A DNA stretch of 62,214 nucleotides from Candidatus Krumholzibacteriia bacterium (GTDB lineage: Bacteria > Krumholzibacteriota > Krumholzibacteriia > G020349025): positions 1 through 62,214 of the forward strand of contig DASRJO010000113.1 in the NCBI GenBank assembly GCA_035649435.1, read 5' to 3'. Positions 20,783-54,469 of this stretch are shown piece after piece. The notes beneath the pieces are model-generated. The model ran no database searches. It saw nothing but the letters and a program-made list of their open reading frames with translations, and was not told the DNA's origin. Numbering within the stretch: position 1 is the first letter of the stretch; every line of letters begins with the position of its first letter. The position numbers and the translations under genes are program-made.

Positions 20783-23215
20783 TCAGGTCACGGAGTCGGG
20801 GCTTACCGCCGTCCCCATCGACTTGATGTGGACGTCGCGCTGCGGGAAGGGAATGGCGATCCCAGCCGAACTCAGGGCCGCGAGCGCGGCGACGGCGACA
20901 TCGCTGCGGATGCGCATCCATTGGTCGATGTTCGTACTCCACACTCGCAGCTGGAAATCGAGCGAGCTGTCGCCGAAAGCGATGAACAGCGCCGAGGGCG
21001 GCGGTTGCGCGGCGACATCCGGGTGGCGGGCGCCGGCCGAGACGAGCAGGTCGATCACCGTCTGCGGATCGCTGCCGTACTCGACGCCCACGTTCACGTC
21101 GATGCGCCGCTGCCGGTCGGACAGGGTCCAGTTCACCACTTCGTTGGCGATCAAGTTGGCGTTGGGGACGATGACCTCGGCGCCTTCAAAAGTGCGCACG
21201 GTGCTCGAACGCATGCCGATGCGCTTGACCTCGCCGGTCGTTTGGCCAATCTGCACCGAGTCGCCGGGCATGATCGGGCGCTCGACCATCAAGATCAGCC
21301 CCGAAACGAAATTGTTGATCACGTTCTGCAGACCGAAGCCGACACCCACACCGAAGGCGCTGGCGATGATGGTGAATTTGCTGAGCTCGATGCCGGTGGC
21401 GGCGACGGCGAGAAAGAAACCGCAGAGCACGAGAATGTAGTGCACCCCGGTCGAGATCGCATACGGCAAGCCGCGCGGCAAGGACACACGCGGGTAGATT
21501 TCTTCGGCGAGAATGAATCGCACCGCACGCGACACCAGGACGGCAGCTCCCACCGTGACCGCAAAGCTCACGATGTCGCCGAGGGAGAAGGCGAATTCAC
21601 CGAAGCGGGCCTGGGCAGCCAGGATTTTGCGCACGCCGCTCGTGACGACGCCCCAGAGCAGCATGGCTTGCAGCGCCTTCTGCACCCACAAGAAAACCAG
21701 CAGCGCGCCCAGTAGGACGGTCGCGCGCCGGTGCAGCATCGCTTCGTGGTTGCGGACCAGCGGCGACTTGCGCAGGTACGAGATGCGGAAAACGACGCGC
21801 AGCAGCGCTTCCACCACCAAGAACGCACCGTAGAGCGCCAGGCCGAGATACGCTGCGCGCACGACCCCGCGCATGGTGAGCGAAGCCAACGACGCATTGC
21901 CCACGATGTTGGCGAGGAGCGCGATCGACACCAGGCCGAAGGCGATCCATTGCAGGGCGAGCACCAAGCGCCGTGACGCGGTGGTTGGATCGGACGCGCG
22001 CCGTGAGCGGCGCAGCATGGGCACCAGAACCCAAAGAGCCAGCACGCATTGGAGAACGAGCACGAATCGTTGCAGCGGTGAGAGGTAGATCGCCAGCTCG
22101 GCGAGAATGCTCAAGACACGCAACGCGACGAGGGCGGACAGGAGATAGGTGTGTCGGACGATCCAGGGTGGGAGGACTCGGAATAACGGAATGAAAAGGA
22201 GCGTGGTTCCGACATCGAGCACGAGAAAAGGCAACCCCGGCAATGCGAGCGTGGTGACGAGGGCGGCGGCGATCGTGGCCGCGGAGACTGGCCGCGACAG
22301 GATCCGGACCGCCGCTCCCATGTCTTGCTCCGGGTGACGTTTTCGCATCCGGCGCCCGAGCTGAATGGCGATCGCGAGGAGAACGAGGAAGAGAGCCCCA
22401 CAAGCGATCAAAGCTTTGCGTTCCATGACCACGAACTCGCGAACTTCCTGCACGTCGTTTCGCAGGCCCGTGGTGGCTTGGTCGAGTTGCTCGCCCAACC
22501 CGAATGGTGGATGCAGAGCCACGCTCCAAAGCGGCGGGACGTCGAGGACGGAGAGCTGCATGCGTGCACGCGTGCGCGCCGCCTCGATCATTTGGAGGCC
22601 CTCGTCTAGGAAGTTCTCGGCGCGTCCCACCTGTCCTTCGACGGTGAAAACCTCGGCGCGGCGCTCGAGGAAGCGAGTTTCGATCGCAGTAATGGAGTCG
22701 ATGGCCTCGCGGGGGACCTCCAACAGCTGCGGCGGCGCCAGCGAATCCAGGCCTGCGAGCGTCGCAACCCATGTCGAACGCAGATCGAGCAACGTTTGCA
22801 GGTCGTGATCGATGGAGCGCCCCCGCCGCTGCAGCTTTGCATGCCAGGACACAATGGGGGTTCGCACTCGTCTGACGCGGCGCTCCATCTCCGCCACGTC
22901 GCGGGTGGAAACAGCTTTGTCGATCAGGCCCTCGGTCGATGCGAGCAGTTCTTGGGCGCGGTCGAGCGCCGCCGGCAAAGCGCCGCGAATCGCGTCCAAT
23001 TCGGCGTCGGGTCCATGACGATCGCGCATGAACTCGAGCACCGCCTGGGTCTCTTGCATCTTGACGGAGATCAACGATTGCGGAATCGGCTGCACGACTG
23101 GCGCGGATTCCTGTTGGGCGGGAGCCGATGGGGTCTCTGCCGCAGCTGGCACGGACAAGATGGATGAGACGAGGGCAAGCGAGACGAGAGCATTCACGCC
23201 GACGGAACCCCCCAT
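20783..23215 (-). CDS. Mechanosensitive ion channel, MscS superfamily, MscK-like with a large N-terminal periplasmic/TM extension
   Basis: This is the C-terminal 810 codons of ORF 20783..24595. The in-frame ATG at 23215 gives MGGSVGVNALVSLALVSSILSVPAAAE (signal). A coiled periplasmic region and many TM helices follow, and then the MscS core GLQNVINNFVSGLILMVERPIMPGDSVQIGQTTGEVKRIGMRSSTVRTFEGAEVIVPNANL. The upstream 460 aa of the track ORF read through the ABC ATPase gene in another frame and are not real. Confidence 0.85.
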   Translation of the reverse strand: MGGSVGVNALVSLALVSSILSVPAAAETPSAPAQQESAPVVQPIPQSLISVKMQETQAVLEFMRDRHGPDAELDAIRGALPAALDRAQELLASTEGLIDKAVSTRDVAEMERRVRRVRTPIVSWHAKLQRRGRSIDHDLQTLLDLRSTWVATLAGLDSLAPPQLLEVPREAIDSITAIETRFLERRAEVFTVEGQVGRAENFLDEGLQMIEAARTRARMQLSVLDVPPLWSVALHPPFGLGEQLDQATTGLRNDVQEVREFVVMERKALIACGALFLVLLAIAIQLGRRMRKRHPEQDMGAAVRILSRPVSAATIAAALVTTLALPGLPFLVLDVGTTLLFIPLFRVLPPWIVRHTYLLSALVALRVLSILAELAIYLSPLQRFVLVLQCVLALWVLVPMLRRSRRASDPTTASRRLVLALQWIAFGLVSIALLANIVGNASLASLTMRGVVRAAYLGLALYGAFLVVEALLRVVFRISYLRKSPLVRNHEAMLHRRATVLLGALLVFLWVQKALQAMLLWGVVTSGVRKILAAQARFGEFAFSLGDIVSFAVTVGAAVLVSRAVRFILAEEIYPRVSLPRGLPYAISTGVHYILVLCGFFLAVAATGIELSKFTIIASAFGVGVGFGLQNVINNFVSGLILMVERPIMPGDSVQIGQTTGEVKRIGMRSSTVRTFEGAEVIVPNANLIANEVVNWTLSDRQRRIDVNVGVEYGSDPQTVIDLLVSAGARHPDVAAQPPPSALFIAFGDSSLDFQLRVWSTNIDQWMRIRSDVAVAALAALSSAGIAIPFPQRDVHIKSMGTAVSPDSVT

Positions 23216-24336
23216 GCGATCTGCCGCTGTGTTTCGGGGTCGAAGAAGTGGAGCCGGTGGCGCTGGAAGTGCAACCCCACCTGGGCGCCGAGAGCGAGCC
23301 CGACCTGGCCCGGCACGAGGACACGCACCGGCTCTGCGCTCGGTTGCTCGAGCACGACGTGGAGCAGCGTCTCGCGACCGAGTGGTTCGACGACGTCCAC
23401 ACGTCCGCGCGCGTCGGCCCCCGAACCGTCGGGGATGGACACATCCTCGGGACGGATGCCGACGACGACCGGGCGGGAATCCGTCGCCCTCGAAGCGGGA
23501 GCTTTCCCGTCCTGCGGCAACGCGGGAAAAGGCGGCAGGTCGATGACCGCACCCGTCATCTCGAGGCGTGAGGTCTTCCCATCGGGTGTGCGCGTGATCG
23601 AGCCTGGAAGAAGATTCATCCGCGGCGAGCCGACGAAGCGTGCGACGAACTGCGTCGCCGGGCGGTTGTAGATCTCGAGCGGCGTGCCAACCTGGAGGAA
23701 GCGCCCAGAATGCATCACGGCGACACGGTCGCCGAGCGTCATCGCCTCTTCCTGATCGTGGGTCACGTAGAGCATGGGCACGTGCAGCTCCCGGTGCAAG
23801 CGTGCGATCTCGGTGCGCGTTTGCACGCGCAGCTGCACGTCGAGATTGGAGAGCGGCTCGTCGAGGAGGAATGTCTTGGCGTTGCGCGCGATGGCACGCC
23901 CGAGAGCGACGCGCTGGCGCTGCCCGCCGGAGAGCTGCGAGGGCTTGCGGTCGAGGAGCGTGGTGATTCCGAGACTCTCGGCGACCTCCGTGGCGCGCCG
24001 AGCGACTGCTTGGCGCGATTCGCCGCGCATCTTGAGACCGAAACCCAGGTTGTCGCGCACACTCATGTGTGGGTAGAGGGCGTAGTTCTGAAACACCATG
24101 GCGATGTCGCGCTGCTGTGGTGGCAGCTCGGTCACGTCGCGACCACCCAGGAGCACACGGCCCTGCGTCGGCGACTCGATCCCCGCCACGATCCGGAGCA
24201 GCGTGCTCTTGCCACACCCCGAGGGTCCGAGGAGGACGACGAGCTCGCCGTCGCGGACTTCGAGGTCGACGCCGGCCACGGCGGTGTGACCGCCGGGGAA
24301 GATTTTCTCGATCGCCTCGAGGCGCAGCTCGGGCAT
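23194..24336 (-). CDS. Sugar ABC transporter ATP-binding protein (MalK/UgpC/MsiK type)
   Basis: ORF 23194..24360. The in-frame ATG at 24336 is preceded by AGGAGG with 5-nt spacing. Motifs are Walker A GPSGCGKST, the Q-loop MVFQNYALYPHMSV, the signature LSGGQRQRVALGRA and Walker B FLLDEPLSNLD, plus a C-terminal MalK-like regulatory/TOBE domain. The stop at 23194 lies 22 nt inside the MscK-like gene start. Confidence 0.9.
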   Translation of the reverse strand: MPELRLEAIEKIFPGGHTAVAGVDLEVRDGELVVLLGPSGCGKSTLLRIVAGIESPTQGRVLLGGRDVTELPPQQRDIAMVFQNYALYPHMSVRDNLGFGLKMRGESRQAVARRATEVAESLGITTLLDRKPSQLSGGQRQRVALGRAIARNAKTFLLDEPLSNLDVQLRVQTRTEIARLHRELHVPMLYVTHDQEEAMTLGDRVAVMHSGRFLQVGTPLEIYNRPATQFVARFVGSPRMNLLPGSITRTPDGKTSRLEMTGAVIDLPPFPALPQDGKAPASRATDSRPVVVGIRPEDVSIPDGSGADARGRVDVVEPLGRETLLHVVLEQPSAEPVRVLVPGQVGLALGAQVGLHFQRHRLHFFDPETQRQIAWGVPSA

Positions 24337-24358
24337 GGTTCCTCCTGGAATCTGCGGC

Positions 24359-25966
24359 ATGATACTCGATGCCCTCGCGGCCAGGCGGGTTGCGTTCCCC
24401 CGGGGCTTCCCGGATGATGACCGCCGTCATTCGGCCAAGGAGGAGATCGCCATTCCTCGTGCACGCGCAAGGACGGCACGTGACGCAGCGCCGACACCCA
24501 GGCCGCTGCAAGGATGGGCTCGGCGCGGCCGGGTACTGCCGCGATGGGTCGTCTGCATCGGCGCCCTCACCGTGATTGGTTGCGGCCGAACGCACGACGA
24601 GTCTCGGATCCCGGCAGAAACCGGCGCGAGCGACGCCGAGGCGGCCTTCCTCGACACACTGGAAGTACGCACCTTCCGCTGGTTCTGGGACCTGAGCGCG
24701 TCACGCACGGGGCTCACGCCCGACCGCTGGCCGACGCTTTCGTTCGCGAGCGTGAGCGCCACGGGATTCGCGCTCACGGCTTATCCCATCGGCGTCGAAC
24801 GTGGCTACGTGACGCGTGACCTTGCGCGCCGCCGTGTACTCGAGACCTTGCAATGGTTCTGGTCGGCGCCGCAGGATACGTCGCGCACCGGAGCCACGGG
24901 CTATCGCGGCTTCTTCTATCACTTTCTCGACGCCGAGACCGGACTCCGCTTTCGCGATGTCGAGCTCTCCACGGTGGACACCGCTCTCTTCCTGGCCGGC
25001 GCGCTCTTCTGCCAGTCCTACTTCGACGGCGAGGCGTCGGAGGAAACTGACATCCGCGCGCTGACCGATTCGCTGTACGCGCGCGTCGACTGGCGTTGGG
25101 CACAGGTGCGCCCGCCCTCGATCGGCCATGGTTGGACGCCCGAGGAAGGCCATCTTGCTTACGATTGGCGCGGCTACAACGAGGCGATGCTCGTCTACTT
25201 GCTGGCACTCGCATCTCCCACACACCCCGTGTCTGCCGAGGCCTGGGAATCCTGGACGTCGGGATACCGCTTCGGAACATTCCACGGCCAGGAACATGTG
25301 GGATTCGCGCCACTCTTCGGCCATCAGTACACGCATGTGTGGATCGACTTCCGCGGCATCCAAGACGCGGCCATGCGCGCGCATGGGCTCGACTACTTCG
25401 AGAATTCGCGCCGCGCCGTGGTGGCACAGCATGCGTACGCTGTCGCCAACCCGATGGGCTGGTCGGGCTACGGGGCGGAGCTTTGGGGGTTGACCGCCTG
25501 CGACGGTCCGGTCGAGGGTGCGTTCGAGATCGACGGCATGCGGCGCGAGTTCCACACCTACTGGGCGCGCGGCGCTTCCTTCACCAATGTGCAAGACGAC
25601 GGCACGATCTCACCCGCGGCCGCGGCAGGATCCATCGCCTTCGCCCCGGATCTGGTGATCCCCATGTTGCGGGTGCTCCGCGACACCTACGGGACGCATG
25701 TCTTCGCCCGCTACGGTTTCGTCGACGCGCTCAACCCCACGTTCAAGCTCCAGGTTCCGGTCCAGCACGGACGCGTCGATCCGGAGCTCGGTTGGTTCGA
25801 CACCGATTACCTCGGCATCGATCAAGGCCCGGTGTTGGCGATGGTGGAGAATCACCGGAGCGAGCTGGTGTGGCGGATGATGCGCCGCAACCCCCACGTC
25901 GTCCGCGGTCTGCGCGCCGCCGGATTCACCGGCGGTTGGCTGGCGACGTTGCCGGAGGGACGATGA
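24359..25966 (+). CDS. Glucoamylase-like (alpha/alpha)6 protein of the PF10091 / GH144 type (candidate endo-beta-1,2-glucanase), lipoprotein-like
   Basis: ORF 24335..25966. Motifs I associate with the putative-glucoamylase / GH144 family are FRWFWD, GFFYHFLDAETGLR, LSTVDTALFLAGALFCQSYF, GYNEAML, FGHQYTHVWIDFRGIQD, YFENSRRA, NPMGWSGYGAELWGLTACDG, GFVDALN and YLGIDQGP. The lipobox-like LTVIGC follows RRGRVLPRWVV. The start is uncertain: the only canonical in-frame starts are 24335/24359, whereas a strong AGGAGG (24438..24443) sits 8 nt before an in-frame ATT at 24452. Confidence 0.65.
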   Translation: MILDALAARRVAFPRGFPDDDRRHSAKEEIAIPRARARTARDAAPTPRPLQGWARRGRVLPRWVVCIGALTVIGCGRTHDESRIPAETGASDAEAAFLDTLEVRTFRWFWDLSASRTGLTPDRWPTLSFASVSATGFALTAYPIGVERGYVTRDLARRRVLETLQWFWSAPQDTSRTGATGYRGFFYHFLDAETGLRFRDVELSTVDTALFLAGALFCQSYFDGEASEETDIRALTDSLYARVDWRWAQVRPPSIGHGWTPEEGHLAYDWRGYNEAMLVYLLALASPTHPVSAEAWESWTSGYRFGTFHGQEHVGFAPLFGHQYTHVWIDFRGIQDAAMRAHGLDYFENSRRAVVAQHAYAVANPMGWSGYGAELWGLTACDGPVEGAFEIDGMRREFHTYWARGASFTNVQDDGTISPAAAAGSIAFAPDLVIPMLRVLRDTYGTHVFARYGFVDALNPTFKLQVPVQHGRVDPELGWFDTDYLGIDQGPVLAMVENHRSELVWRMMRRNPHVVRGLRAAGFTGGWLATLPEGR

Positions 25967-27300
25967 ACGCGATCTGCCGCGCGAAGCGAGATCGACCCAC
26001 CAATCGACGAATGCACGTCGTCTGGATGGCCGTGGCCTTTGGGATTCCCGCCTGCGGCGGCTCGGAAGATGCGCAGCCGACGACGTTGCGCTTCTGGGCC
26101 ATGGGGCGCGAAGGCGAAGTGGTGCAAGAGATGTTGCGCGACTTCGAGGTGGAGCAACCCGGCATCCGAGTGCGGCTGCAACAGATTCCTTGGACCGCGG
26201 CACATGAGAAGCTGCTCACCGCGCACGTGGGGCGATCGACGCCGGATCTCGCCCAGCTCGGCAACACTTGGATCGCCGAGTTCACCGCTCTCCGCGCGCT
26301 GGAGCCGCTCGACGATCGGATCGCAGCTTCGACGACCCTCGACTCGACGTCGTATTTCGCCGGCATCTGGGAGACGAATCGGATGCAGGACAACATCTAT
26401 GGTGTGCCCTGGTACGTGGACACGCGCCTTCTCTTCTATCGCAAGGACATCCTGGCCCGCGCCGGTTACGATTCGATCCCCGCCACGTGGAGCGAATGGC
26501 GCACCGTGATGGAGGCGATGCTGCGCGTTGTCGGCAAGGACCATTACACCATTCTCCTGCCGCTCAACGAGTGGCTGCCGGTCGCGCTCCTCGGCCTACA
26601 GACGGGTTCGCCGCTCCTCGCCGACGCAGGCACGCGCGGCGCGTTCGCCGCGCCGCCGTTCCGGCGTGCCTTCGCGTTCTACGTCGATCTGTTCCAGAGC
26701 GGTCTCGCGCCGCCGGTGACCAACACGGAGATCGCCAACCTCTATCAGGAGTTCGAGCGCGCTTACTTCACCATGTACATCACGGGTCCGTGGAACTTGG
26801 GCGAGTTTCGCCGGCGGCTGCCGCCGGAATCCCAGGACACCTGGGCGACATCGCCGCTCCCGGGCCCGGATGGGCCCGGCGTGTCGATCGCGGGCGGATC
26901 GAGTCTCGTGCTCTTCCGCGGCTCGCGCCACAAGGAAGCCGCCTGGCGGCTGGTCGAGTTCCTGTCCCGACCCGAGCAGCAGCTGCGCTTCTACCATCTC
27001 ACCGGGAACTTGCCGGCGCGCGTGGAGACTTGGGGCGACACGGCGCTGACACAAGATGCCAACATGCGCGCCTTCGGCGCCCAGCTGCGTCGTGTGGTGC
27101 CGGCGCCCAAAGTGCCGGAATGGGAGCTGATCGCGACACGGCTGCAAGAGCGCGGCGAGCTCGCAGTGCGCGGCAGCGTGAACCTCGATTCGGTCCTGGC
27201 CATGCTCGACCGCGACGTCGATCGGATTCTCGAAAAACGGCGCTGGATGCTGGAACATGGGCGACTCACGACGGCGGGACCCGGGAGCACGAGCCCATGA
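25963..27300 (+). CDS. ABC transporter extracellular solute-binding protein (family 1, oligosaccharide type)
   Basis: In-frame part of ORF 25096..27300. The ATG at 25963 overlaps the upstream stop (ATGA) and follows GGAGGGA. The N-terminus MNAICRAK...MHVVWMAVAFGIPACGGSEDAQ is lipoprotein-like. The body (TLRFWAMGREGEVVQEML..., IPWTAAHEKLLTA, GVPWYVDTRLLFYRKD) matches sugar SBPs. Confidence 0.85.
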   Translation: MNAICRAKRDRPTNRRMHVVWMAVAFGIPACGGSEDAQPTTLRFWAMGREGEVVQEMLRDFEVEQPGIRVRLQQIPWTAAHEKLLTAHVGRSTPDLAQLGNTWIAEFTALRALEPLDDRIAASTTLDSTSYFAGIWETNRMQDNIYGVPWYVDTRLLFYRKDILARAGYDSIPATWSEWRTVMEAMLRVVGKDHYTILLPLNEWLPVALLGLQTGSPLLADAGTRGAFAAPPFRRAFAFYVDLFQSGLAPPVTNTEIANLYQEFERAYFTMYITGPWNLGEFRRRLPPESQDTWATSPLPGPDGPGVSIAGGSSLVLFRGSRHKEAAWRLVEFLSRPEQQLRFYHLTGNLPARVETWGDTALTQDANMRAFGAQLRRVVPAPKVPEWELIATRLQERGELAVRGSVNLDSVLAMLDRDVDRILEKRRWMLEHGRLTTAGPGSTSP

Positions 27301-27331
27301 CCACGGTGGCCATGAACTGGAGCACGAGTCC

Positions 27332-32258: not shown

Positions 32259-32361
32259 GATGGTGGAACAGGACACAACTCGAACGGCCGCCCCCGCAAC
32301 GAATACGAACTGCCCAGCGCGCCCGATGTCGCCCAACCTGGTACAGAGCATCTCTTCTCGA

Positions 32362-39879: not shown

Positions 39880-39899
39880 TGTAGGACTAAGGTCCTACA
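39880..39899. promoter_or_regulatory. Perfect 20-bp palindrome TGTAGGAC-TAAG-GTCCTACA in the divergent GH94/lacI control region
   Basis: The arms at 39880..39887 and 39892..39899 are exact reverse complements with a 4-nt spacer. The site lies 73 nt upstream of the GH94 GTG (39807). It is a candidate operator for a second regulator or a 5'-UTR hairpin. Confidence 0.4.
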
Positions 39900-39941
39900 A
39901 GGGAAAGTCCAACTGTGAGCTTGACGGCGCGGGGGTGTTCG

Positions 39942-39955
39942 TGTAACCGTTTACA
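39942..39955. promoter_or_regulatory. LacI/GalR-family operator (TGTAACCGTTTACA)
   Basis: The site fits the family consensus TGnAAnCGnTTnCA at all fixed positions and is 12/14 self-complementary. It lies between the divergent GH94 operon start (39807) and the LacI-family gene start (40023). Confidence 0.6.
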
Positions 39956-40022
39956 CGCTCGAACCGAGCGTCTCGCCTGGCGCCCGCGCGTCCAGAAACG
40001 GCGCGGCGCATCGGAGTTCGTC

Positions 40023-43128: not shown

Positions 43129-43177
43129 CGACAAAGGAGTGTCGTCGCGAGCAAGCGGCATTTGGAGGCAGCAGAGC

Positions 43178-45838: not shown

Positions 45839-45863
45839 CTGCGGACCGCGAGGGAGGTGAGAC

Positions 45864-48800: not shown

Positions 48801-49139
48801 GTGGACGCCGAGCAGGCGGTGAGTGCGAACGACCGGCCCTACGTGGTGCCGAATCCCTACGTGGGATCGGCCAGCTTCGAGCCGGAGCGATTCAACATCG
48901 CGGGACGGGGTGAACGACGGATCGAGTTCCGCAACCTGCCGCAGTCGTGCACGATCCGGATCTACACCGTGCGTGGCGAGCTAGTGCAGACCTTGGTGCA
49001 CGACGGCTCGACCGCCGGTGCCGTGGCGTGGAACCTCCGCACCAAGGACAACCTGGACCTGGCCCCGGGCCTGTATGTGTTCCACGTCGATGCTGGAGCG
49101 GTCGAGTCGAGCATCGGCAAGTTCGCGGTCATCAAGTGA
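45864..49139 (+). CDS. Large secreted hypothetical protein (1091 aa) with Ca-binding Asp-rich loops, an FN3-like module and a T9SS-CTD-like tail
   Basis: ORF 45864..49139, with AGGGAGG upstream and a 25-nt gap after the TBDR gene. The signal peptide is LAVTVLLLLSSPAAPVQGQ. Thrombospondin-type-3-like loops are DGADNDEDGITDE and DLGGDGVPDTDDLGEGDGVP. The FN3-like segment is PTVTAEASDGRVRLSWDDV...FEGYRIYRS. The tail is VVPNPYVGSA...CTIRIYTVRGELV...GLYVFHVDAG...GKFAVIK. The N-terminal 400 aa match no family I can name. Confidence 0.7.
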   Translation: MQFTTETRRSGLAVTVLLLLSSPAAPVQGQVTTPVPADQRGTLNAERSGIHDAANIRTLFWNYGMVGDYPVDPVNVDLSVFHSAEVPEGSGMNYSDGITPFVLAKVRQRNGLDAYIMETGFRERQGLSPYFNRVMRFEPRPGYFQADPGRSPARSPAISSDPRTWPDFWPDKQLDPEDPGWRGSWNGYFGKRAAADQESFMVMDDQFYDAWDYYPDERDLTRRGLGLRIEVRGFQWANPQAGNVIFWHYDITNEGTTDYDDNIIFGLYMDSGVGGSALSCDGIYESDDDNAFFDRTFDQDVINLVYTWDRFGHGRDLGSTCARTGYLGYAYLETPGNPFDGADNDEDGITDERRDAGPGELIVGQDAIAAWVEGHYNRAQFELEYGPLANRPAYRAGRWWTGDEDMDWNPELHDLGGDGVPDTDDLGEGDGVPTTGEANFDRTDLNESDQIGLTGFKINRIKAGQGNPSQEVDGVLFFTESNNWPQRLYQQFTNPDPALRFDPPLASNYNIGFLFASGPFELRAGQTERFSLALAYGGDLNELRRTVRTVQKIYDANYQFAVPPKLPTVTAEASDGRVRLSWDDVAERSADPVTGEFDFEGYRIYRSTDPEFRDVKLISTGTGTGPLGNGRPSAQFDLVNGKIGFSQQTVEGVAYYLGDDTGLTHTWTDSTAVNGQLYYYAVTAYDHGSEAFDFYPSENSISVSKTRRGGTILASNVAEVRPEPPVRGYVRARTDALSHAAGDGIGSIRIEVLNSALVPDDKLFKISFSGHPDNVRAEGYALIDSTSEQVVFDTGRDLEGVGNGPVGAGLLPVIATQKTVEVDSVRTGFASGGPTNAQILVDYQTVLPINRRRSGFPEDLEITFADVVVDTGLAIFPIPARAAKFRVMAHTAMGDRPMNFRFRDLDNDGTLSRPDEFVDVVTYVDEAPGMPQVTWRFVISGTSDGGALRPPRDGDVFTLRLTKPFGVGDLFVFTTSGEFVDAEQAVSANDRPYVVPNPYVGSASFEPERFNIAGRGERRIEFRNLPQSCTIRIYTVRGELVQTLVHDGSTAGAVAWNLRTKDNLDLAPGLYVFHVDAGAVESSIGKFAVIK

Positions 49140-49156
49140 AGTTGGGGAGCAGCGGG

Positions 49157-50167
49157 ATGAAGCGTGTCGTGGTCACTGAGCTCCTGTGCGCGATGGTGCT
49201 CGGGGAATCGGCGGTGGCGCAGACACAGGTGGGAACCACGATCGGCCAGTTCCTGGCCATCGAGCCGAGCGCGCGCATCGCGGCGATGGGAAACGCCGGC
49301 GTGGCGGTGGGCGGCGGCATCCAGGCCGTCTACTACAACCCGGGGGCGCTGGGTCTCGTGCCGTCGACCTCATTTCAATTCAGCCATGGCGTCTGGTTCG
49401 CCGACATCCGCTACGAGTACGCCGCGGCAGCGATCTCGCTCGAGGATTGGGGCAATCTCCTGGTCAGCGTGACCGCGCTCAACTCGGGCGACATCGAGGT
49501 GCGCACGGTGACGGCGCCGCTGGGCACAGGGGAGCTGTACTCCGCCCAAGATCTCGCCTTTGGCATCGGCTATGCCCGCCAGGTGACCGACCGCTTCGCC
49601 GCCGGCGCACAGTTCAACTATCTCAACGAGACGATCTGGCACAGCTCTCTCAATGCTTACACGCTCAGCTTCGGCACGACGTACCGAATCAACGATGCCG
49701 GCTTGACGCTCGGGGCGAGCGTGCTCAACTTCGGCACTCGCAGCGGCTACGACGGCCTCGATCTCACGATCCAGTACGACGCCGACCCCGATCAGCACGG
49801 GGACAACAGCGCTCTTCCCGCCGAGCAATCCACCGACGAGTTCCCCGTGCCGACGGTTTTCCGTGTTGGGATGAGCTATCCGCAGCGGACGAGCGCCTCG
49901 AGCACGATCTTGATGACCGTGGATGCGTTCCACCCCAATGACAACACGGAGGGCCTGAGCCTCGGCTGGGAGTGGACATGGAAGGACGCGCTGGCGCTGC
50001 GCGCTGGGTATCAGAGCTTGGGCCAGCAAGACTCCGAGCTCGGACCGACCGCGGGCGTCGGCTTGAGTGGCAACATCGCTTCGCGCCGTTTCCAACTCGA
50101 CTACGGCTGGGCCTCGCACACGGTCTTGCCGGAAATGCATCGCATCACCTTCACGCTGACGATGTGA
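49157..50167 (+). CDS. PorV/PorQ-family outer-membrane beta-barrel protein
   Basis: In-frame ATG at 49157 within ORF 48947..50167, 17 nt after the upstream stop. The signal peptide is MKRVVVTELLCAMVLGESAVAQT. The family-typical N-terminus is GQFLAIEPSARIAAMGNAGVAVGGGIQAVYYNPGALG. Amphipathic beta-strands alternate through to the C-terminal ITFTLTM. Confidence 0.7.
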   Translation: MKRVVVTELLCAMVLGESAVAQTQVGTTIGQFLAIEPSARIAAMGNAGVAVGGGIQAVYYNPGALGLVPSTSFQFSHGVWFADIRYEYAAAAISLEDWGNLLVSVTALNSGDIEVRTVTAPLGTGELYSAQDLAFGIGYARQVTDRFAAGAQFNYLNETIWHSSLNAYTLSFGTTYRINDAGLTLGASVLNFGTRSGYDGLDLTIQYDADPDQHGDNSALPAEQSTDEFPVPTVFRVGMSYPQRTSASSTILMTVDAFHPNDNTEGLSLGWEWTWKDALALRAGYQSLGQQDSELGPTAGVGLSGNIASRRFQLDYGWASHTVLPEMHRITFTLTM

Positions 50168-50171
50168 GGCC

Positions 50172-51848
50172 ATGGAACCAAACCGAACAACACGAGGCAG
50201 CGCGCGCGATCCGGCCCGAGGCGAAACCTCACGCACGAAGTGGCCAAAGGGAGTGAGTCCTTTGATCCGGTCCATCCTCCGTTCCTGTCTGCTCGCGATC
50301 GTCCTCACCGGTCCGCCGACCGCGGCCAAGGCGCTCAGCACGGAGGCGTTGCTCGATACGCTGCAGCACACCGCGTTCGACTTCTTCTGGAACGAGGTGA
50401 ATGTCAGCAACGGGCTCATCAAGGATCGCAACACTTCGGGGTCGCCGTGCAGCATCGCCTCGCTGGGCTTCGGGCTCTCGGCCATCTGCATCGGCATCGA
50501 TCATGGGTGGGTGAGCCGCGACGCCGGCCGTGCACGCATCCTGACGGCGTTGCAGACCTTGTGGACGGCGCCGCAGAGCTCCGCGGCCAGCGGCACCATT
50601 GGCTACCAAGGTCTCTACTACCACTTCCTCGACATGACCACGGCGACGCGGACGTGGAACTCCGAGCTGTCCACCATCGACACAGCTCTGCTGTTCGCCG
50701 GCGTCATCGACGCCAAGCAATTCTTCGACACCGCCGCCGCCGGGGACGTGCAGGTGCGAGAGCTCGCCGACTCCATTTATCAGCGCGCCAACTGGGAGTT
50801 CATGCGCAACTTCGCGCCCTCGATCTACATGGGCTGGAAGCCGGGCACCGGATTCTCCGGCTTCGGTCAGTGGATCGGTTACAACGAGGCGATGATCCTG
50901 TTCATCCTGGCGCTGGGATCGCCGACGCATCCGGTACCCACGAGCACGTGGACCGCGTGGACCGCCGGCTACGATTGGGACACACAGTACGGGCAGACCT
51001 ACGTCACCTTCCCGCCGCTCTTCGGACACCAGTACAGCCACTGCTGGATCGATTTCTACAACATCCGGGATGCCTACATGCAGAATCGTGGCATCACCTA
51101 CTTCGAGAACTCGCGACGGGCCACCTTGGCGCAGCAGGCTTACTGCATCGCCAACCCGCTCGGTCGTGTCGGCTATGGCGCCAACGTCTGGGGGATCACG
51201 GCCAGCGACGCACCCACAGGCTATTCGGCGCATGGCGCACCGCCTCCCCAGAACGACGATGGAACCATCGCCCCTACGGCGGTCGCCGGCTCCATCCCGT
51301 TCGCCCCCGAGATCGTCGTGCCGACCTTGCATCATCTGTACGACACCTACGGCGCTCAGCTCTTCTCCACGTACGGGTTCCGCGATGCCTTCAATCTGGG
51401 GGCGAATTGGTGGGACACCGATACCATCGGCATCGATCAGGGGCCGATCATCATCATGATCGAGAACTACCGCACGAACCGGGTGTGGAATCGCTTCATG
51501 CAGAACCCCGACGTCCAACGCGGGCTGCAGCGCGCCGGCTTCGTCGTCGCCACCGACCTGGCCGCGGGCGGCGGCGCAGGGGAGCCACGCTTCACCTTGT
51601 CGCAGAATCGGCCCAACCCCGTGCGCGCAGACGCCTTGGTGCCTTTCCGTCTCGATGCGGTCGGGCGCGTGTCGATGGGACTCTACGACGTGGCAGGGCG
51701 TCGCGTGCGCCGGATCCTGGATGGTGTCTACGCGCCAGGTGCGCACACGGTCCCTCTCGACACCACGGGCCTTCCGAACGGGACGTATTACATCCGATTG
51801 GAGGTGAACGGCGAGCGGCAGGCGAAAGCGTGCTTGGTCATCCGCTGA
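50172..51848 (+). CDS. Second PF10091 / GH144-type glucoamylase-like protein, with T9SS C-terminal sorting domain
   Basis: ORF 50172..51848. An alternative TTG start at 50262 has AAAGGGAG 8 nt upstream and would give IRSILRSCLLAIVLTGPPTAAKA as the signal peptide. It shares the motif series of 24359..25966: FDFFWNE, GLYYHFLDMTTATR, LSTIDTALLFAGVIDAKQFF, GYNEAMI, FGHQYSHCWIDFYNIRD, YFENSRRA, NPLGRVGYGANVWGITASD, GFRDAFN, IGIDQGP. The tail is NRPNPVRADALVPFRL...VSMGLYDVAGRRV...GTYYIRLEVNGERQAKACLVIR. Confidence 0.7.
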   Translation: MEPNRTTRGSARDPARGETSRTKWPKGVSPLIRSILRSCLLAIVLTGPPTAAKALSTEALLDTLQHTAFDFFWNEVNVSNGLIKDRNTSGSPCSIASLGFGLSAICIGIDHGWVSRDAGRARILTALQTLWTAPQSSAASGTIGYQGLYYHFLDMTTATRTWNSELSTIDTALLFAGVIDAKQFFDTAAAGDVQVRELADSIYQRANWEFMRNFAPSIYMGWKPGTGFSGFGQWIGYNEAMILFILALGSPTHPVPTSTWTAWTAGYDWDTQYGQTYVTFPPLFGHQYSHCWIDFYNIRDAYMQNRGITYFENSRRATLAQQAYCIANPLGRVGYGANVWGITASDAPTGYSAHGAPPPQNDDGTIAPTAVAGSIPFAPEIVVPTLHHLYDTYGAQLFSTYGFRDAFNLGANWWDTDTIGIDQGPIIIMIENYRTNRVWNRFMQNPDVQRGLQRAGFVVATDLAAGGGAGEPRFTLSQNRPNPVRADALVPFRLDAVGRVSMGLYDVAGRRVRRILDGVYAPGAHTVPLDTTGLPNGTYYIRLEVNGERQAKACLVIR

Positions 51849-51947
51849 TCGCTGCCGCGGATTTCGCATCGCTTGCATCTTGTTCTTGTCATGCGTGGTC
51901 CAGCGTCATGAACGCTCGAGGTCATTTTTGTTTCGATTCGTGCGCAT

Positions 51948-52021
51948 GATCGAGTGGGTGATTGCACCCGATTTCATCAAAAGAAGAAACGAGGTTGAAA
52001 CACGATCGAGTGGCTGATAGC
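51948..52021. repeat. 18-bp direct repeat GATCGAGTGG(G/C)TGAT(T/A)GC, two copies, in the AT-richer gap upstream of 52118
   Basis: The copies at 51948..51965 and 52004..52021 match at 16 of 18 positions and start 56 bp apart. They sit inside the only large gap (269 bp) of the plus-strand gene array 40023..54469, so this is a candidate internal promoter/operator region. Confidence 0.5.
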
Positions 52022-52117
52022 TTCGGACTGAACGACTCGACTTTGTGCCCCCTGCGCCTTGTTCAAGGAGCCATTTTCGCGTCCACGTTGCAGAGCTTCG
52101 TACGAGGAGGAACATCC

Positions 52118-54469
52118 ATGAGACGCTTCGATTCTCGTGCTGGGGTGATGGCCGTTGTCGCGGCCGTCGGCCTGGTGTGCTTCGCGGCGGCCTTTGGAGG
52201 CACGGCTCGTGCGACACCGTTGCCCAACGGTGCCAGCATCGAGGCCCGTACCTTCAACGACTGCGGCCTGTCGACCCTTACGGTGACGAACAATTTCCCG
52301 GCGTCGGTCGAGATCACCGATGCGATGCATCCGGCGTGCCTTGGCTTCGCCAACCTGCACAGCTTCAGTTTCTCGGAGGACGGCGGCGCGACCGCTGCCG
52401 CCTTCGCCAACAACTCGAGCTTCCGGTTCGGCGCCGACTTCACCCTCAGCGGCCCGGGCGAAGGAGAAGGCGGGCTGCGCCTTTCCCCGTGGTGGTCGCA
52501 GTTGGTGGACGGGCGTTTCATGGCGAACGCGACGAGCGGCGAAATCGCCGTGTTCGGCGGCCGCCTGCCCTTCTACAGCTTCACCGTCAATCACGGCATC
52601 TCCTATGTCAAAGGCACGACGATCCGTTTCGAGCTGACCTATCTGGACAATGGGTTGAGCGCAGCGGATCCGGCCACGGTTCAGTACCGCGCGATCTACG
52701 GTGGCAACACCTACGATAGCCCGGTGCTCTCGTTCGACATGGGCAACCCGGGGGAGGATCCTCCGTACGGACTGTGGGGGATGCTGAACGACGGGCGGGC
52801 CGGCGGTTACTTCCAGGTGCGAGCCAACACCGGAGTTGCGCTCACCGCCAACTGGTCGAACGTCGAGTTCACCCCGCTCGGGACGCCGGATGTGAACGCC
52901 GCGACGATCGAGGCCCGCACGTTCAACGACTGTGCGCTCTCGACGCTCACGACGACGAACAACTATCCGACGCTCGTCGAGATCACCGATGAGATGAATC
53001 CGGCGTGTCTCGGTTTCGCCAACTTGCACAGCTTCAGCTTCTCCGAAGACGGCGGAGTGACACCTGCGGTGTTCAACAACGTTTCGATCTTCCGCTTCGG
53101 AGCCGATTTCACGCTCAGCGGCGCGGGCACAGGGGAAGGCGGTCTGCGGCTCTCCCCATGGTGGTCGCAGTTCGTGGACGGGCGCTTCATGGCGAACGCG
53201 ACGACCGGCGAGATCGCCTGCTTCGGTGGCCGCCTGCCCTTCTACAGCTTCACCGTGAATCACGGCATCACCTACGTGAAGGGCACGACGATCCACATGG
53301 AGCTGACCTACAACCCGAACGGGCTGAGTGCCGCGGACCCGGCGACGATCCAGTACCGCGTGGTCTCTGGCGGCAGCACCTACGACAGCCCGGTGCTGAC
53401 GTTCGACGAGGGCAACGCGGGCGAGGATCCACCCTTCGGTTTGTGGGGGATGCTGAACAACGGACGTGCTGGCGGCTACTTCCAGGTGCGCGCCAACACC
53501 GGCGCCGCGCTCACGGCCACGTGGGGGAACATCACGTTCGGGACTTGCCTCGTCACGATGGACTTCACATTCCAACCTGAGACTCTCAATCTGAAAGCGC
53601 AGGGAAACTTCGTGACCGGCTACCTCGAGCCGCCGGCGGGCTACGCGGCGGAAGACATCGACGTGTCCTCGATCCTGCTCAACGGCACGGTGGCGGTGGC
53701 GGACGGCGCGCCGACATCGATCGGCGACTTCGACGGGGACGGTGTCGCGGACCTGAAGGTCAAGTTCAGCCGTTCCGAAGTCTTGGCAGTCCTGTCCGCG
53801 GGCGATGACGTCCAGGTGTCGGTGAGTGGAACCGTGGCGGGCGACTGCTTCCAGGGTTCGGACATGATCCGGGTCAAGGACTCGGGTCTCCATTCGCCAC
53901 CGCACGGCGCGGTCCTCGTCGCCGGAACCCAGGCCGAGGTGATCTGGGAGGTGGACAGTCACTACCCGAGGGTGGACCTGATTTCGTCCTTCGATGGCGG
54001 CGCCACCTGGAACATCGAGGCGCGCCGGCTGCAGAACACCGGCACCTACCAATGGACCGTTCCTGCCGTGCTCACGGACCAGGCGTCGCTCGCAGTGGTC
54101 GTGATCCACGGCGAGAACGCGGACCTGGAGCTGGAAGCCGAGCTGGGCCAGAGCAGTGCCACGTTCTCCATCACGACGCCCACGGACGCGCTCAATCGCG
54201 GCAACGTCTTCGCGCTGCATGGCGTGTCGCCGAACCCCGCACGGCTCGGCATCACGGTGAACTTCAGCTTGGCCAGCTCGGAGCCGGCGAAGCTCGAGGT
54301 CTTCGACGTGCGCGGACGGCAGGTTGCTGACGCCGACGTCGGCACGATGGGTCCAGGCATGCACAGCCTGACGTTCGGCAAGGAGAAAAACCTCGCTGCC
54401 GGCGTCTACATGGTGCGGCTCACCAAGGGGGATCGCAGCCTCCGGGTGCGAGCAACCGTGATCCAGTAG
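52118..54469 (+). CDS. Secreted protein with a tandemly duplicated 223-aa domain of unknown function, a Ca-binding DxDxDG-like motif, an Ig-like region and a T9SS C-terminal sorting domain
   Basis: In-frame ATG at 52118 (GAGGAGG upstream) within ORF 51962..54469. The signal peptide is MRRFDSRAGVMAVVAAVGLVCFAAAFGGTARA. Two near-identical domains follow (see the repeat feature), then DFDGDGVADLKVKF, and then the tail VSPNPARLGITVNFSLASSEPAKLEVFDVRGRQV...GVYMVRLTKGDRSLRVRATVIQ. Confidence 0.7.
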   Translation: MRRFDSRAGVMAVVAAVGLVCFAAAFGGTARATPLPNGASIEARTFNDCGLSTLTVTNNFPASVEITDAMHPACLGFANLHSFSFSEDGGATAAAFANNSSFRFGADFTLSGPGEGEGGLRLSPWWSQLVDGRFMANATSGEIAVFGGRLPFYSFTVNHGISYVKGTTIRFELTYLDNGLSAADPATVQYRAIYGGNTYDSPVLSFDMGNPGEDPPYGLWGMLNDGRAGGYFQVRANTGVALTANWSNVEFTPLGTPDVNAATIEARTFNDCALSTLTTTNNYPTLVEITDEMNPACLGFANLHSFSFSEDGGVTPAVFNNVSIFRFGADFTLSGAGTGEGGLRLSPWWSQFVDGRFMANATTGEIACFGGRLPFYSFTVNHGITYVKGTTIHMELTYNPNGLSAADPATIQYRVVSGGSTYDSPVLTFDEGNAGEDPPFGLWGMLNNGRAGGYFQVRANTGAALTATWGNITFGTCLVTMDFTFQPETLNLKAQGNFVTGYLEPPAGYAAEDIDVSSILLNGTVAVADGAPTSIGDFDGDGVADLKVKFSRSEVLAVLSAGDDVQVSVSGTVAGDCFQGSDMIRVKDSGLHSPPHGAVLVAGTQAEVIWEVDSHYPRVDLISSFDGGATWNIEARRLQNTGTYQWTVPAVLTDQASLAVVVIHGENADLELEAELGQSSATFSITTPTDALNRGNVFALHGVSPNPARLGITVNFSLASSEPAKLEVFDVRGRQVADADVGTMGPGMHSLTFGKEKNLAAGVYMVRLTKGDRSLRVRATVIQ
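52232..53569 (+). repeat. 669-bp tandem duplication (2 copies) encoding the duplicated unknown domain
   Basis: ATCGAGGCCCG occurs at 52238 and 52907, a 669-nt (223-codon) period. The copies share long identical peptide runs: IEARTFNDC, PACLGFANLHSFSFSEDGG, FRFGADFTLSG, GEGGLRLSPWWSQ, VDGRFMANAT, FGGRLPFYSFTVNHGI, YVKGTTI, NGLSAADPAT, GRAGGYFQVRANTG. Confidence 0.85.

Follow-up and report, generated by a model that had tools for sequence, protein, structure and literature searches.

The 31-kb locus described here, at positions 23194-54469 of a 62,214-nucleotide stretch of DNA from a Candidatus Krumholzibacteriia bacterium (the whole stretch is referred to as the window), raises the question of whether a diderm of this kind can bring a beta-1,2-glucan from outside the cell into its cytoplasm. 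A first-pass annotation had proposed such a pathway from a gene set comprising two GH144-type proteins, a GH94, a coupled GH1, a solute-binding protein, two permeases, a divergent ATPase, a LacI regulator with its operator, and a TonB-dependent receptor. All of these are present at the coordinates given below, with matches far above chance, and searches of the translations with Pfam models recovered both PF10091 and PF06165. An MscS-type mechanosensitive channel is encoded directly upstream of the locus, here and in one related locus (L081; L numbers denote the loci compared). Gene content, homologies, conserved catalytic residues, synteny and the operator footprint can be read directly from the DNA. 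The proposed pathway is well supported by homology and conserved synteny, and we consider it likely, with good confidence, that the locus encodes a three-compartment system, under LacI control, with which a diderm of the Krumholzibacteriota/Eisenbacteria type uses linear or cyclic beta-1,2-glucan from outside the cell.

GH144 proteins, ABC importer and p1072

The two glucoamylase-like proteins proved to be of the GH144/PF10091 type, as had been suggested. GH144_1 (24335..25966, plus strand; start codon uncertain) matched PF10091 with an E value of 3.8e-78 (262.4 bits) and GH144_2 (50172..51848, plus strand) with an E value of 3.3e-82 (275.7 bits), the gathering score being 27; the two are 45% identical to each other. 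GH144_1 scored 534.6 bits against the Xanthomonas beta-1,2-glucanase XcSGL (8xul) and 143 bits against CpSGL (5gzh), while the corresponding scores for GH144_2 were 383 and 199.7 bits. In the SGL clan, numbered as in XcSGL, E239 is the general acid, F286 lies near the nucleophilic water and Y367 is at subsite -3 (PMC12102758). We mapped these residues by aligning both proteins to 8xul (the E239Q mutant; chain-numbering offset, 14) with HMMER, and found their equivalents at E283, F328 and Y409 in GH144_1 and at E239, F284 and Y351 in GH144_2. PF10091 score, similarity to XcSGL and CpSGL, and clan-defining residues thus all place both proteins in GH144, and GH144_1 is a close XcSGL homologue in which the substrate-contact residues are kept. 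GH144_1 has a lipobox (VIGC|G, Cys83) and is predicted to be a lipoprotein endo-beta-1,2-glucanase on the periplasmic side. GH144_2 combines a signal peptide, the GH144 domain and a T9SS-type C-terminal domain, and is predicted to be a cell-surface endo-beta-1,2-glucanase.

The stop codon of GH144_1 overlaps the start of the solute-binding protein gene (25963..27300, plus strand) in an ATGA at 25963-25966; the latter gene is concealed in a longer ORF opening at 25096. Its product is a lipoprotein (lipobox IPAC|G) with homologues that carry PF01547/PF13416. In a search of the PDB it scored 446.7 bits against 3uor and 230.6 bits (E 3.2e-67) against Lin1841, the Sopn binder (5ysb), with all remaining matches at or below 115 bits; by homology, it appears to be of the Lin1841 type, clearly above other sugar binders. 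Permease 1 (27332..28222, plus strand; PF00528, E 1.6e-19) and permease 2 (28219..29043, plus strand; PF00528, E 7.9e-15) follow, each starting inside its longest ORF, and permease 2 overlaps the permease 1 stop. The MalK-type ATPase (23194..24360, minus strand; PF00005, E 2.8e-36, with OB_MalK and TOBE_2) is divergent from the importer operon, and its likely start is the second Met, at 24336. The ATPase has homologues at the equivalent position in L081 and L085 and, next to GH94, in L002.

The last gene of this group encodes p1072 (29040..32258, plus strand; 1072 aa), whose start overlaps the permease 2 stop and which has a signal peptide. F5/8-type-C was its sole match in Pfam, and a profile of its family matched PDB sequences in the CBM32 domain alone. 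The AF2 model (pLDDT 89.5) comprises an N-terminal beta-sandwich, a CBM32 nearest to chitosan/glucan-binding modules, a beta-supersandwich, an (alpha/alpha)6 barrel and a C-terminal beta-sandwich. Foldseek related it to GH15, GH94 and GH116 at 10-13% identity (9ju0, E 1.8e-16; 1lf6, TMt 0.60), and hhalign to the GH94 family with a probability of 83.6%. Assignment to GH15 was rejected by sequence (TIGR01577, 22 bits; cut-off, 820.7). Homologues number at least 5925. The operon context of p1072 is shared by L002, L010 and L081-L086, and a homologue stands at the edge of L090. Based on the modelled fold, we regard p1072 as a putative, unclassified hydrolase with a glucoamylase/GH94-like fold.

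LacI regulator and outer-membrane cassette

The LacI-family repressor (40020..41153, plus strand; PF00356, PF13377 [Peripla_BP_3] and PF00532), with a true start at about 40020 inside the longest ORF, occupies the same position in L010, L081 and L084-L087. Upstream of it lies a promoter-operator block (39920..39956, no strand assigned) consisting of an invariant TTGAC (39921-39925), 15 nt, and the LacI-type palindrome GTGTAACCGTTTACAC (39941-39956). The 16-bp palindrome has exactly one exact match in the window, in keeping with the operator that the first-pass annotation had described. A 14-mer of it occurs once in each of 7 syntenic loci and in none of the other 80 loci compared; in 6 of the 7 it sits in the GH94/LacI spacer, and in L082 it is upstream of the GH35 gene. 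Mean identity across the spacer is 46%, and no blocks other than TTGAC and the palindrome are invariant. The locus has three transcription units and one operator in total, and searching the window revealed none upstream of the GH144_1-importer operon.

Between LacI and the TonB-dependent receptor (TBDR), here and in all relatives examined, lies p633 (41227..43128, plus strand; start inside the longest ORF), a secreted CBM9-like protein (CBM9_1, 24.3 bits) with a signal peptide and a candidate surface glycan-binding protein. The TBDR (43139..45838, plus strand), whose position is conserved across relatives, matched PF00593, Plug and an N-terminal PF13620 (CarboxypepD_reg). A Bacteroidota-type SusC/SusD locus was considered and rejected: no locus protein matched a SusD family in the Pfam or NCBIfam models, and the TBDR scored 50.6 bits against the SusC/RagA model TIGR04056, for which the cut-off is 368. 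Next is p1091 (45864..49139, plus strand), a very conserved protein with a signal peptide, FN3/Ig-like domains and DxDxDG-rich loops that matched no Pfam family. It has at least 2175 homologues, the best 120 of which are 65-87% identical to it, and it is flanked by the TBDR and the PorV-like gene in all relatives examined. Its AF2 model (pLDDT 59.6) is confident in residues 562-1091 alone, and residues 1-560 are not predictable. The PorV/PorQ-family outer-membrane beta-barrel (49157..50167, plus strand; start inside the longest ORF) scored 167.5 bits against NF033709 (cut-off, 90); the TBDR and the PorV-like barrel named in the first-pass annotation were thus both recovered. Neither equivalog assignment was accepted for the barrel (PorQ, 89.6 against 220; PorV, 63.9 against 250), which appears from these scores to be a paralogue within the PorV/PorQ family. 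GH144_2 and p835 (51962..54469, plus strand; likely start 52118) complete the operon. The secreted p835 contains a 223-aa tandem duplication, visible as a 669-nt direct repeat of 81% identity (52226-52894 and 52895-53563), and has a homologue at the same place in L087.

The locus had also been credited with four proteins bearing T9SS C-terminal domains, a count that holds in part. Against TIGR04183 (cut-off, 23), p835 (29.6 bits) and p633 (25.0 bits) are above the curated threshold and GH144_2 is just below it (21.8 bits), although its homologues carry Por_Secre_tail; the domain of p1091, for which FlgD_ig and PorZ-tail matches were weak, was recognized by alignment with the other three alone. 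A PNP...V(F/Y)DxxGRxV...G(V/I)Y pattern is common to all four. No T9SS core genes were found within the window.

GH94, GH1 and the nature of the substrate

The GH94 (35950..39807, minus strand; 1285 aa) matches PF06165 in two stretches (463.9 bits) as well as PF17167 (386.3 bits) and, like GH1, has no signal peptide; both are predicted to be cytoplasmic. It retains GDWNDGMN, and its catalytic Asp, D955, aligns with D2528, the catalytic residue of RrCGS. Its best match was the cyclic glucan synthase Cgs (8rf9/8rf0, 820 bits), with which it is colinear over GP1 and GP2-GP3: residues 7-295 align with GP1 (Cgs 1532-1825) and residues 445-1227 with GP2-GP3 (Cgs 2004-2780), while an insert of ~150 residues (296-444) sits at the position of RFL (Cgs 1847-2012) but does not align with it. 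Cellobiose/chitobiose phosphorylases (CBP/ChBP) scored 268 bits, and LpSOGP (5h3z) scored 25.6 bits (E 2e-5). The protein had been likened both to the C-terminal phosphorylase part of Cgs and to stand-alone 1,2-beta-oligoglucan phosphorylases; the first likeness stands, whereas the second fails, and membership of the SOGP clade (Lin1839/LpSOGP) was rejected on these scores. Considering that GH94 falls outside that clade, its predicted beta-1,2 specificity rests on the Cgs domain and not on the SOGP family. In Brucella CGS, the C-terminal domain alone phosphorolyses linearised cyclic glucan (PMC3960220). Our best inference is that GH94 works like SOGP, as a beta-1,2-(oligo)glucan phosphorylase.

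The possibility that GH94 is a full cyclic glucan synthase was rejected, as the 1285-aa ORF begins at GP1 and no GT84/GT2 domain, GH189-type cyclase domain or transmembrane segment was found in the protein, nor any GT84/GT2 or GH189 domain in the whole window. In a tree of 81 sequences, it fell inside a stand-alone clade (L010, L003, L002, L008) whose neighbours are catabolic genes. The best 120 database matches were all 1120-1380 aa long; among matches in genomes, 54 of 80 were ORFs of >1500 aa reaching upstream of the GH94 match (2926 aa in one example). Unlike Cgs, with its GT84, GH189 and transmembrane segments, this GH94 is free-standing, soluble and in a catabolic operon with GH1, and by sequence it appears to be an evolutionarily detached Cgs module.

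The GH1 beta-glucosidase (34544..35953, minus strand; PF00232, E 7.8e-160) starts at 35953, inside the longest ORF (34544-36187), and overlaps the GH94 stop in an ATGA (35950-35953), which confirms the translational coupling proposed earlier. Its best PDB match was 6jfp (628.8 bits). The sophorose-preferring Td2F2 scored 441-444 bits, no closer than many other GH1s, and GH1 is not especially close to characterised sophorose-preferring members; it is, judging from these matches, of a generic BglB type. Downstream is a membrane-anchored GDSL/SGNH-like protein with TPR (32362..34467, minus strand; Lipase_GDSL_2, 33.7 bits), which is also encoded 3' of GH1 in the closest relative, L088, and is missing from L010 and L081-L086. 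This protein is a lineage-specific accessory and, speculatively, a putative esterase acting on substituted glucans.

The kinship of GH94 with Cgs suggests an alternative in which the genes are not for foraging: GH94, the periplasmic GH144 and p1072 would recycle glucan made by the cell itself, and its periplasmic beta-1,2-glucans, whether osmoregulated or cyclic, would in this way be turned over or remodelled. A detached Cgs module would suit such a role, one full-length Cgs (L037) has a GH144 neighbour, and the upstream MscS-type channel here and in L081 would fit osmoregulation. This reading must nevertheless accommodate a window lacking GT84/GT2 and GH189, a GH94 ORF that begins at GP1, a GH144 with a T9SS export domain, a TBDR inside the operon, and LacI-type control together with a binding-protein importer, both typical of catabolic loci, and we consider it unlikely. 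A slightly less probable alternative is that the GH144 and GH94 assignments mislead on linkage and that the substrate is some other beta-glucan or beta-linked oligosaccharide, such as cellodextrin, laminarin or chito-oligosaccharide. GH94 is indeed closer to cellobiose/chitobiose phosphorylases than to LpSOGP, GH1 is generic, and the CBM32 of p1072 most resembles chitosan/glucan-binding modules; however, GH94 matches the Cgs phosphorylase domain far better than anything else, activity in the GH144 enzymes assayed to date is on beta-1,2-glucan or on oligosaccharides of it (PMC12102758, PMC8861115) and GH144_1 is close to one of these enzymes, XcSGL, and the binding protein groups with Lin1841 and not with cellodextrin or chitobiose binders.

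Distribution, proposed route and relation to known systems

Loci that match this one in almost every gene occur in MAGs of Krumholzibacteriota, Eisenbacteria and Latescibacteria, with the same gene set in L010, L081-L087, L089 and L090, and the core operon is also found in the cultured Pseudoduganella flava (L002). A p1072 protein is a constant member of the locus. FCB-type loci carry a conserved LacI-p633-TBDR-p1091-PorV-like cassette. That two unrelated neighbours are joined here, one an ABC/cytoplasmic operon for sophoro-oligosaccharides and the other an outer-membrane T9SS/TBDR cassette of other purpose, is the least probable reading of all, since, although P. flava and L083 have the core operon without the cassette and p633, p1091 and p835 have no assignable function, the cassette has its own GH144 with an export domain, is headed by the only LacI of the locus, and in all of the FCB-type loci sampled (L010, L081, L084-L087, L089 and L090) lies next to genes for GH94, GH1 or the importer.

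For the use of exogenous beta-1,2-glucan, we propose the following route, in which all activities, all localisations and the inducer are predictions from sequence. GH144_2, p633, p1091 and p835, each by means of its T9SS-type C-terminal domain, would be exported and retained on the cell surface, perhaps assisted by the locus-encoded PorV/PorQ-family barrel, and GH144_2 would cut the polymer endolytically. Fragments would cross the outer membrane through the TBDR. In the periplasm, GH144_1 would trim them to sophoro-oligosaccharides, and p1072, predicted to be an inverting hydrolase whose acid is E773 and whose base is E898, may remove something beyond the reach of the GH144s. The Lin1841-like binding protein, two permeases and MalK would then import Sop(n), which GH94, using D955, would phosphorolyse from the non-reducing end to alpha-glucose-1-phosphate, leaving sophorose to be hydrolysed by the coupled GH1. 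The LacI-to-p835 operon has a conserved promoter that overlaps the single palindrome, and LacI would bind to this palindrome until released by an oligosaccharide effector. Several observations weigh against the route: GH94 stands outside the characterised SOGP clade, GH1 is generic, a single operator serves a locus of three transcription units, the T9SS scores of GH144_2 and p1091 are marginal, and the window lacks T9SS core genes.

Parts of this route have counterparts in described systems. Listeria innocua lin1839-1843 similarly combines a Sop(n) binding-protein importer, with a homologous binding protein, a GH94 phosphorylase and a beta-glucosidase, but it belongs to a monoderm, lacks an endo-glucanase and an outer-membrane layer, uses GH3 rather than GH1, and has a GH94 of another clade, one that includes the solved LpSOGP. 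Streptomyces griseus SGR_2422-2427 shares a GH1 (SGR_2426) with a Lin1841-like Sop(n) importer, an endo-beta-1,2-glucanase and an esterase-like accessory gene, yet it is from a monoderm, its endo-glucanase is GH193 and not GH144, and it has no GH94 (PMC12369401). The Bacteroidota GH144 PULs (Chitinophaga pinensis CpSGL; Bacteroides thetaiotaomicron BT_3567) also pair a GH144 endo-beta-1,2-glucanase with a TonB-dependent outer-membrane importer; they are SusC/SusD-type loci that work by hydrolysis (GH3), whereas the present locus has no SusD, takes up its substrate at the inner membrane by an ABC importer and ends in a phosphorolytic step.

The first-pass annotation knew of no described locus in which phosphorolysis is coupled with an outer-membrane layer. 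This was wrong, as the Ignavibacterium album SGL cluster IALB_1177-1187 is one, and the same outside-periplasm-cytoplasm model was proposed for it, speculatively, by Kobayashi et al. 2022 (PMC8861115). Both loci have two GH144s, a TonB-dependent transporter, a Sopn-type binding protein with its ABC importer, and a stand-alone GH94 of the Cgs type, homologous to the Cgs C-terminal domain. They differ in that I. album has a GH35 beta-1,2-glucosyltransferase (IaSGT) and is stated to have no beta-glucosidase homologue, whereas GH1 is coupled to GH94 in the window; the published description includes no T9SS domains, PorV-like barrel or proteins of the p1091, p633 or p1072 type, and draws some genes as "prediction difficult" (PMC8861115). 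Two syntenic MAG loci, L082 and L090, combine GH35 with a GH94 that is short, at 800 aa, and seem to stand midway between the I. album and GH1-bearing versions. New over the I. album description are the T9SS/PorV-like layer, the GH1 partner and p1072.

A similar cluster has thus already been described, and the version in the window adds several conserved, so far uncharacterised proteins. We tentatively suggest, while giving it somewhat less than even credence, that p1072 founds a new GH family, an obligate periplasmic member of multi-phylum beta-1,2-glucan loci, and that the p633/TBDR/p1091/PorV-paralogue cassette is a T9SS-tethered capture device. If so, p1072 would be a hydrolase derived from the GH94/GH15 fold, with the phosphate-binding His replaced and a Glu as base, and it would cleave a linkage beyond the GH144s, such as one at a branch, at a substituted unit or at the alpha-1,6 bond that closes Xanthomonas-type cyclic glucans. 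The cassette, for its part, would stand in for SusD and for surface glycan-binding proteins in SusD-less FCB candidate phyla.

Gene organization and export signals

At 65% G+C, the window contains many long spurious ORFs; genes were chosen first by third-position G+C, and their starts were then refined from the translations. The genes of the locus are closely packed into three transcription units. Unit A, on the forward strand, comprises GH144_1, the first of two GH144 paralogs (24335/24359-25966), a binding protein (25963-27300), permease 1 (27332-28222), permease 2 (28219-29043), and p1072, named, like other proteins here, for its length in amino acids (29040-32258), with overlaps at three of the four gene junctions. 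A MalK-type ATPase is encoded divergently on the reverse strand (23194-24360). Unit B, also on the reverse strand, carries GH94 (39807-35950), GH1 (35953-34544, overlapping GH94 at an ATGA), and a GDSL/TPR protein (34467-32362). Unit C runs forward through LacI (~40020-41153), p633 (41227-43128), a TonB-dependent receptor (TBDR; 43139-45838), p1091 (45864-49139), a PorV-like barrel (49157-50167), GH144_2 (50172-51848), and p835 (51962/52118-54469), with intergenic gaps of 4 to 73 nt as far as GH144_2. The GH94 product of the gene callers (P0241) starts 16 residues downstream of the ORF start used here. The MalK and GH144_1 ORFs, in head-to-head orientation, share positions 24335-24360, and no ATG, GTG, or TTG codon lies between 24359 and the GH144_1 lipobox (~24570). 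An ATT stands 6 nt past a strong Shine-Dalgarno-like sequence, AAGGAGGAG (24438-24446), raising the possibility that GH144_1 uses a noncanonical start codon.

Pfam and NCBIfam searches bore out every family named in the first-pass annotation, and neither collection gave a SusD match among the locus proteins. Lipoboxes were read from the translations of GH144_1 and the binding protein, and signal peptides were found in p1072, p633, p1091, the PorV-like protein, and GH144_2; none was found in GH94 or GH1. The C-terminal 85 to 100 residues of p633, p1091, GH144_2, and p835 can be aligned with one another and, elsewhere in the window, with the FlgD_ig/Por_Secre_tail region that Pfam identifies at the end of an unrelated cadherin-like protein.

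Elsewhere in the window, a 1,364-aa surface protein (4808-8902, reverse strand) with four Big_9/cadherin-like repeats, CBM96 (an alginate-type binding module), Calx-beta, and a FlgD_ig/Por_Secre_tail C-terminal domain is further T9SS-type cargo, unrelated to the glucan locus. A TonB gene lies at 4003-4749. Three Ser/Thr protein kinases are encoded within 14 kb (975-2492 and 8951-11848, reverse; 11600-14437, forward), one with PD40/beta-propeller repeats and one with a long TPR array. Directly upstream of the locus is a reverse-strand MscS-type mechanosensitive channel gene (20783 to ~23190; the Pfam matches fall in the C-terminal part of a long ORF, 20783-24595); in one Krumholzibacteria MAG (L081), MscS and ABC-F ATPase genes flank the locus. 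Coding-biased ORFs at 16255-18837 (forward), 59954-60928 (forward), and 60933-62192 (reverse) matched no Pfam family at an E value of 1e-4 or better.

Enzymes of the putative beta-1,2-glucan pathway

We compared GH94 with its solved relatives. [quoted passage not shown] The alignment spans Cgs residues 1532-1825 and 2004-2780, which correspond to GP1 and GP2-GP3 of the cryo-EM subdomains, and leaves an unaligned stretch of ~150 residues at the position of the Rossmann-like insert. The catalytic Asp D2528 of RrCGS corresponds to D955 in the window GH94. Since the C-terminal domain of Brucella CGS alone phosphorolyzes linearized cyclic glucan (PMC3960220), a free-standing protein of this type can, by analogy, work as a beta-1,2-glucan phosphorylase. 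The notion that the best 80 genome matches were all stand-alone relatives was rejected: full-length Cgs account for 54 of them, contig ends truncate another 14, and 10 stand alone. In a neighbor-joining tree, the window GH94 clusters with stand-alone proteins from four related loci (L010, L003, L002, and L008), all four of which have catabolic neighbor genes. The best 120 matches in a large protein collection are all 1,120 to 1,380 aa long; an exact look-up of the window product gave no match.

Other arrangements occur among the loci compared. A short GH94 (800 to 807 aa, without the GP1/RFL part) is present in some syntenic loci, and L082 also carries GH35 instead of GH1; the genes concerned lie at 13274-15697 and 17266-19635 in L082 and at 17519-19921 in L090. 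A GH35 of this kind from I. album has been characterized as a beta-1,2-glucosyltransferase (PMC8861115). In an Acidobacteriota MAG (L037, ~14105-15322), a GH144 homolog lies directly downstream of a full-length Cgs, which suggests that glucan synthesis and trimming genes can be linked too.

Both GH144 paralogs, which are 45% identical, matched XcSGL of Xanthomonas campestris (8xul; GH144_1, 534.6 bits; GH144_2, 383 bits), a demonstrated beta-1,2-glucanase, and CpSGL (5gzh; PDB name Endo-beta-1,2-glucanase), the founding GH144 member (PMC12102758). The clan-defining residues E239, F286, and Y367 (PMC12102758) are kept in both; the Q at position 239 in the 8xul alignment arises because that structure is the E239Q mutant. 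Among solved structures, the binding protein matched 3uor (446.7 bits) and then Lin1841, the Listeria sophoro-oligosaccharide binder (230.6 bits), with the remaining sugar binders at 115 bits or less. By its sequence matches, GH1 is an ordinary BglB-type beta-glucosidase (top match 6jfp, 628.8 bits; sophorose-preferring Td2F2, 441 to 444 bits), and its linkage preference cannot be inferred from sequence.

For p1072, Pfam detects only a CBM32/F5-8-C domain, and sequence and family-profile searches of solved structures found nothing beyond it. The family has at least 5,925 members, all named "discoidin domain-containing" or "hypothetical," and we found no relevant literature tying discoidin/CBM32 proteins to beta-1,2-glucan. 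A confident AlphaFold model (pLDDT 89.5, pTM 0.88; 56-sequence alignment) consists of a beta-sandwich (37-190), CBM32 (200-320), a beta-supersandwich (355-566), an (alpha/alpha)6 barrel (577-967), and a C-terminal beta-sandwich. Foldseek matched it to GH15 dextran dextrinase and glucodextranase, GH94 phosphorylases including Cgs, and GH116, all at 10 to 13% identity. Membership in GH15 was rejected, as TIGR01577 scored 22 bits, well under its cutoff. Profile-profile comparison with the GH94 family gave a significant match (probability 83.6%, E value 8e-6) over 520 columns. In this alignment, the invariant R655-D656 of p1072 lies opposite GH94 R820-D821, the invariant PPSISHE(773)GY lies opposite the catalytic-Asp loop, and EAFTPYE(898) replaces GQYTH(1111)AA, the GH94 motif that we take to hold the phosphate-binding His. 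With E773 and E898 so placed, we infer from this remote alignment that p1072 is a putative inverting hydrolase on a phosphorylase/glucoamylase scaffold. Its signal peptide and its constant position downstream of the permease genes suggest a probable role in periplasmic trimming.

Putative surface proteins and regulation

Conservation of p1091 is striking: it is 65 to 87% identical across its best 120 matches, above the identity of the locus enzymes. Its AF2 model is poor for the most conserved half (the N-terminal 560 residues), with only the FN3/Ig-like domains and tail confident; its Foldseek matches were generic FN3/Ig noise (TM < 0.25), from which no function was drawn. p633 has a marginal CBM9-like match. 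The barrel matched the PorV/PorQ family and neither equivalog model. p835 contains a 669-nt (223-aa) tandem duplication (52226-53563; 81% nucleotide identity), and its homolog in the related locus L087 is 784 aa. Judging from position and export signals, we read p633, p1091, p835, and the barrel as a candidate T9SS-tethered capture layer that would replace SusD and surface glycan-binding proteins.

Only one good LacI-type palindrome, GTGTAACCGTTTACAC (39941-39956), is present in the window. Seven syntenic loci each contain a single exact copy of its 14-mer core, six of them in the GH94/LacI spacer and L082 upstream of its GH35 gene; the core is absent from the 80 other loci compared. When seven spacers were aligned (46% mean identity), the only invariant blocks were the palindrome and a TTGAC 15 nt upstream of it, the layout expected if an operator overlaps a rightward promoter at its core. 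On this layout, autoregulation of unit C by LacI is very probable, and LacI control of units A and B only conjectural. The window yielded no further LacI operator, upstream of GH144_1 included. Between the conserved TTGAC and the start of GH94 is a perfect 8+4+8 palindrome, TGTAGGACtaagGTCCTACA (39880-39899), with one copy in the window (0.05 expected by chance); it is absent from all 90 related loci and was discounted as a regulatory site because it is conserved in no relative.

Conservation and significance of the locus

We examined synteny at the loci of seven p1072 homologs and three p1091 homologs. Nine of the 10 share a neighborhood of GH144-SBP-permease-permease-p1072 plus either GH94 with GH1 or GH35 with the short 800-aa GH94. 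The outer-membrane module, wherever present in the sample, reads LacI-p633-TBDR-p1091-PorV-like-GH144 with Por_Secre_tail, and TonB/ExbB/ExbD genes adjoin several loci. Nearly the whole locus, in the same order and without the GDSL/TPR gene, is found on a 165-kb contig of an uncultured bacterium (L010). In Pseudoduganella flava (L002), the outer-membrane cassette is missing and the core operon reads GH144-SBP-permease-permease-p1072-GH1-GH94-MalK. Named MAGs with p1072 or p1091 homologs belong to Krumholzibacteria, Eisenbacteria, Latescibacteria, and Limnocylindria. The closest relative is L087, whose p1091 is 87% identical and whose flanks likewise carry Pyr_redox, Pterin_4a, and E1 dehydrogenase genes.

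The tenth locus, L088, is the closest relative among those carrying p1072. It keeps GH144-SBP-permease-permease-p1072, GH1, and GDSL/TPR; the stretch analyzed ends before any GH94. A block inserted between p1072 and GDSL-TPR/GH1 (L088 7900-14975), made up of a 74-aa GH1 fragment together with unrelated genes for serine, homoserine, and methionine biosynthesis, points to a recent rearrangement at that junction. The GDSL-TPR gene, found in the closest lineage only, was rejected as a core component. In L085 (5629-8295), a single predicted 888-aa product spans GH144 and the binding protein, reflecting either a genuine fusion or a gene call that reads through the ATGA junction.

The first-pass annotation knew of no described locus joining phosphorolysis to a TBDR/T9SS surface layer. 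The same three-compartment model was stated for the I. album cluster by Kobayashi et al. in 2022, who noted that the TonB-dependent step had no biochemical support and left some genes unassigned (PMC8861115). The importer/glucosidase logic of the window locus is also seen in the Listeria and Streptomyces clusters. The kind of system is therefore already known. The window version differs in four respects: GH1 is coupled to GH94, p1072 is always present, the LacI-p633-TBDR-p1091-PorV-like-GH144 cassette is conserved, and the locus is widespread in FCB candidate phyla.

The protein families of the locus are the part most worth following. Four of them, the Cgs-type GH94, p1072, and two conserved surface proteins, gain a defined substrate context. 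The free-standing putative phosphorylase could serve glucan synthesis, p1072 would be a new protein with a modeled glucoamylase-like fold, and the locus offers a putative case in which TonB-dependent glycan import dispenses with SusD. In Rhizobiaceae, Brucella, and Xanthomonas, beta-1,2-glucans act in symbiosis and virulence, and these glucans are osmoprotectants as well; to our knowledge, little has been learned of their recycling in soils and sediments. The locus type is common in uncultured Krumholzibacteriota, Eisenbacteria, and Latescibacteria, with the core also in cultured Proteobacteria, a distribution that hints at consumers of beta-1,2-glucans.
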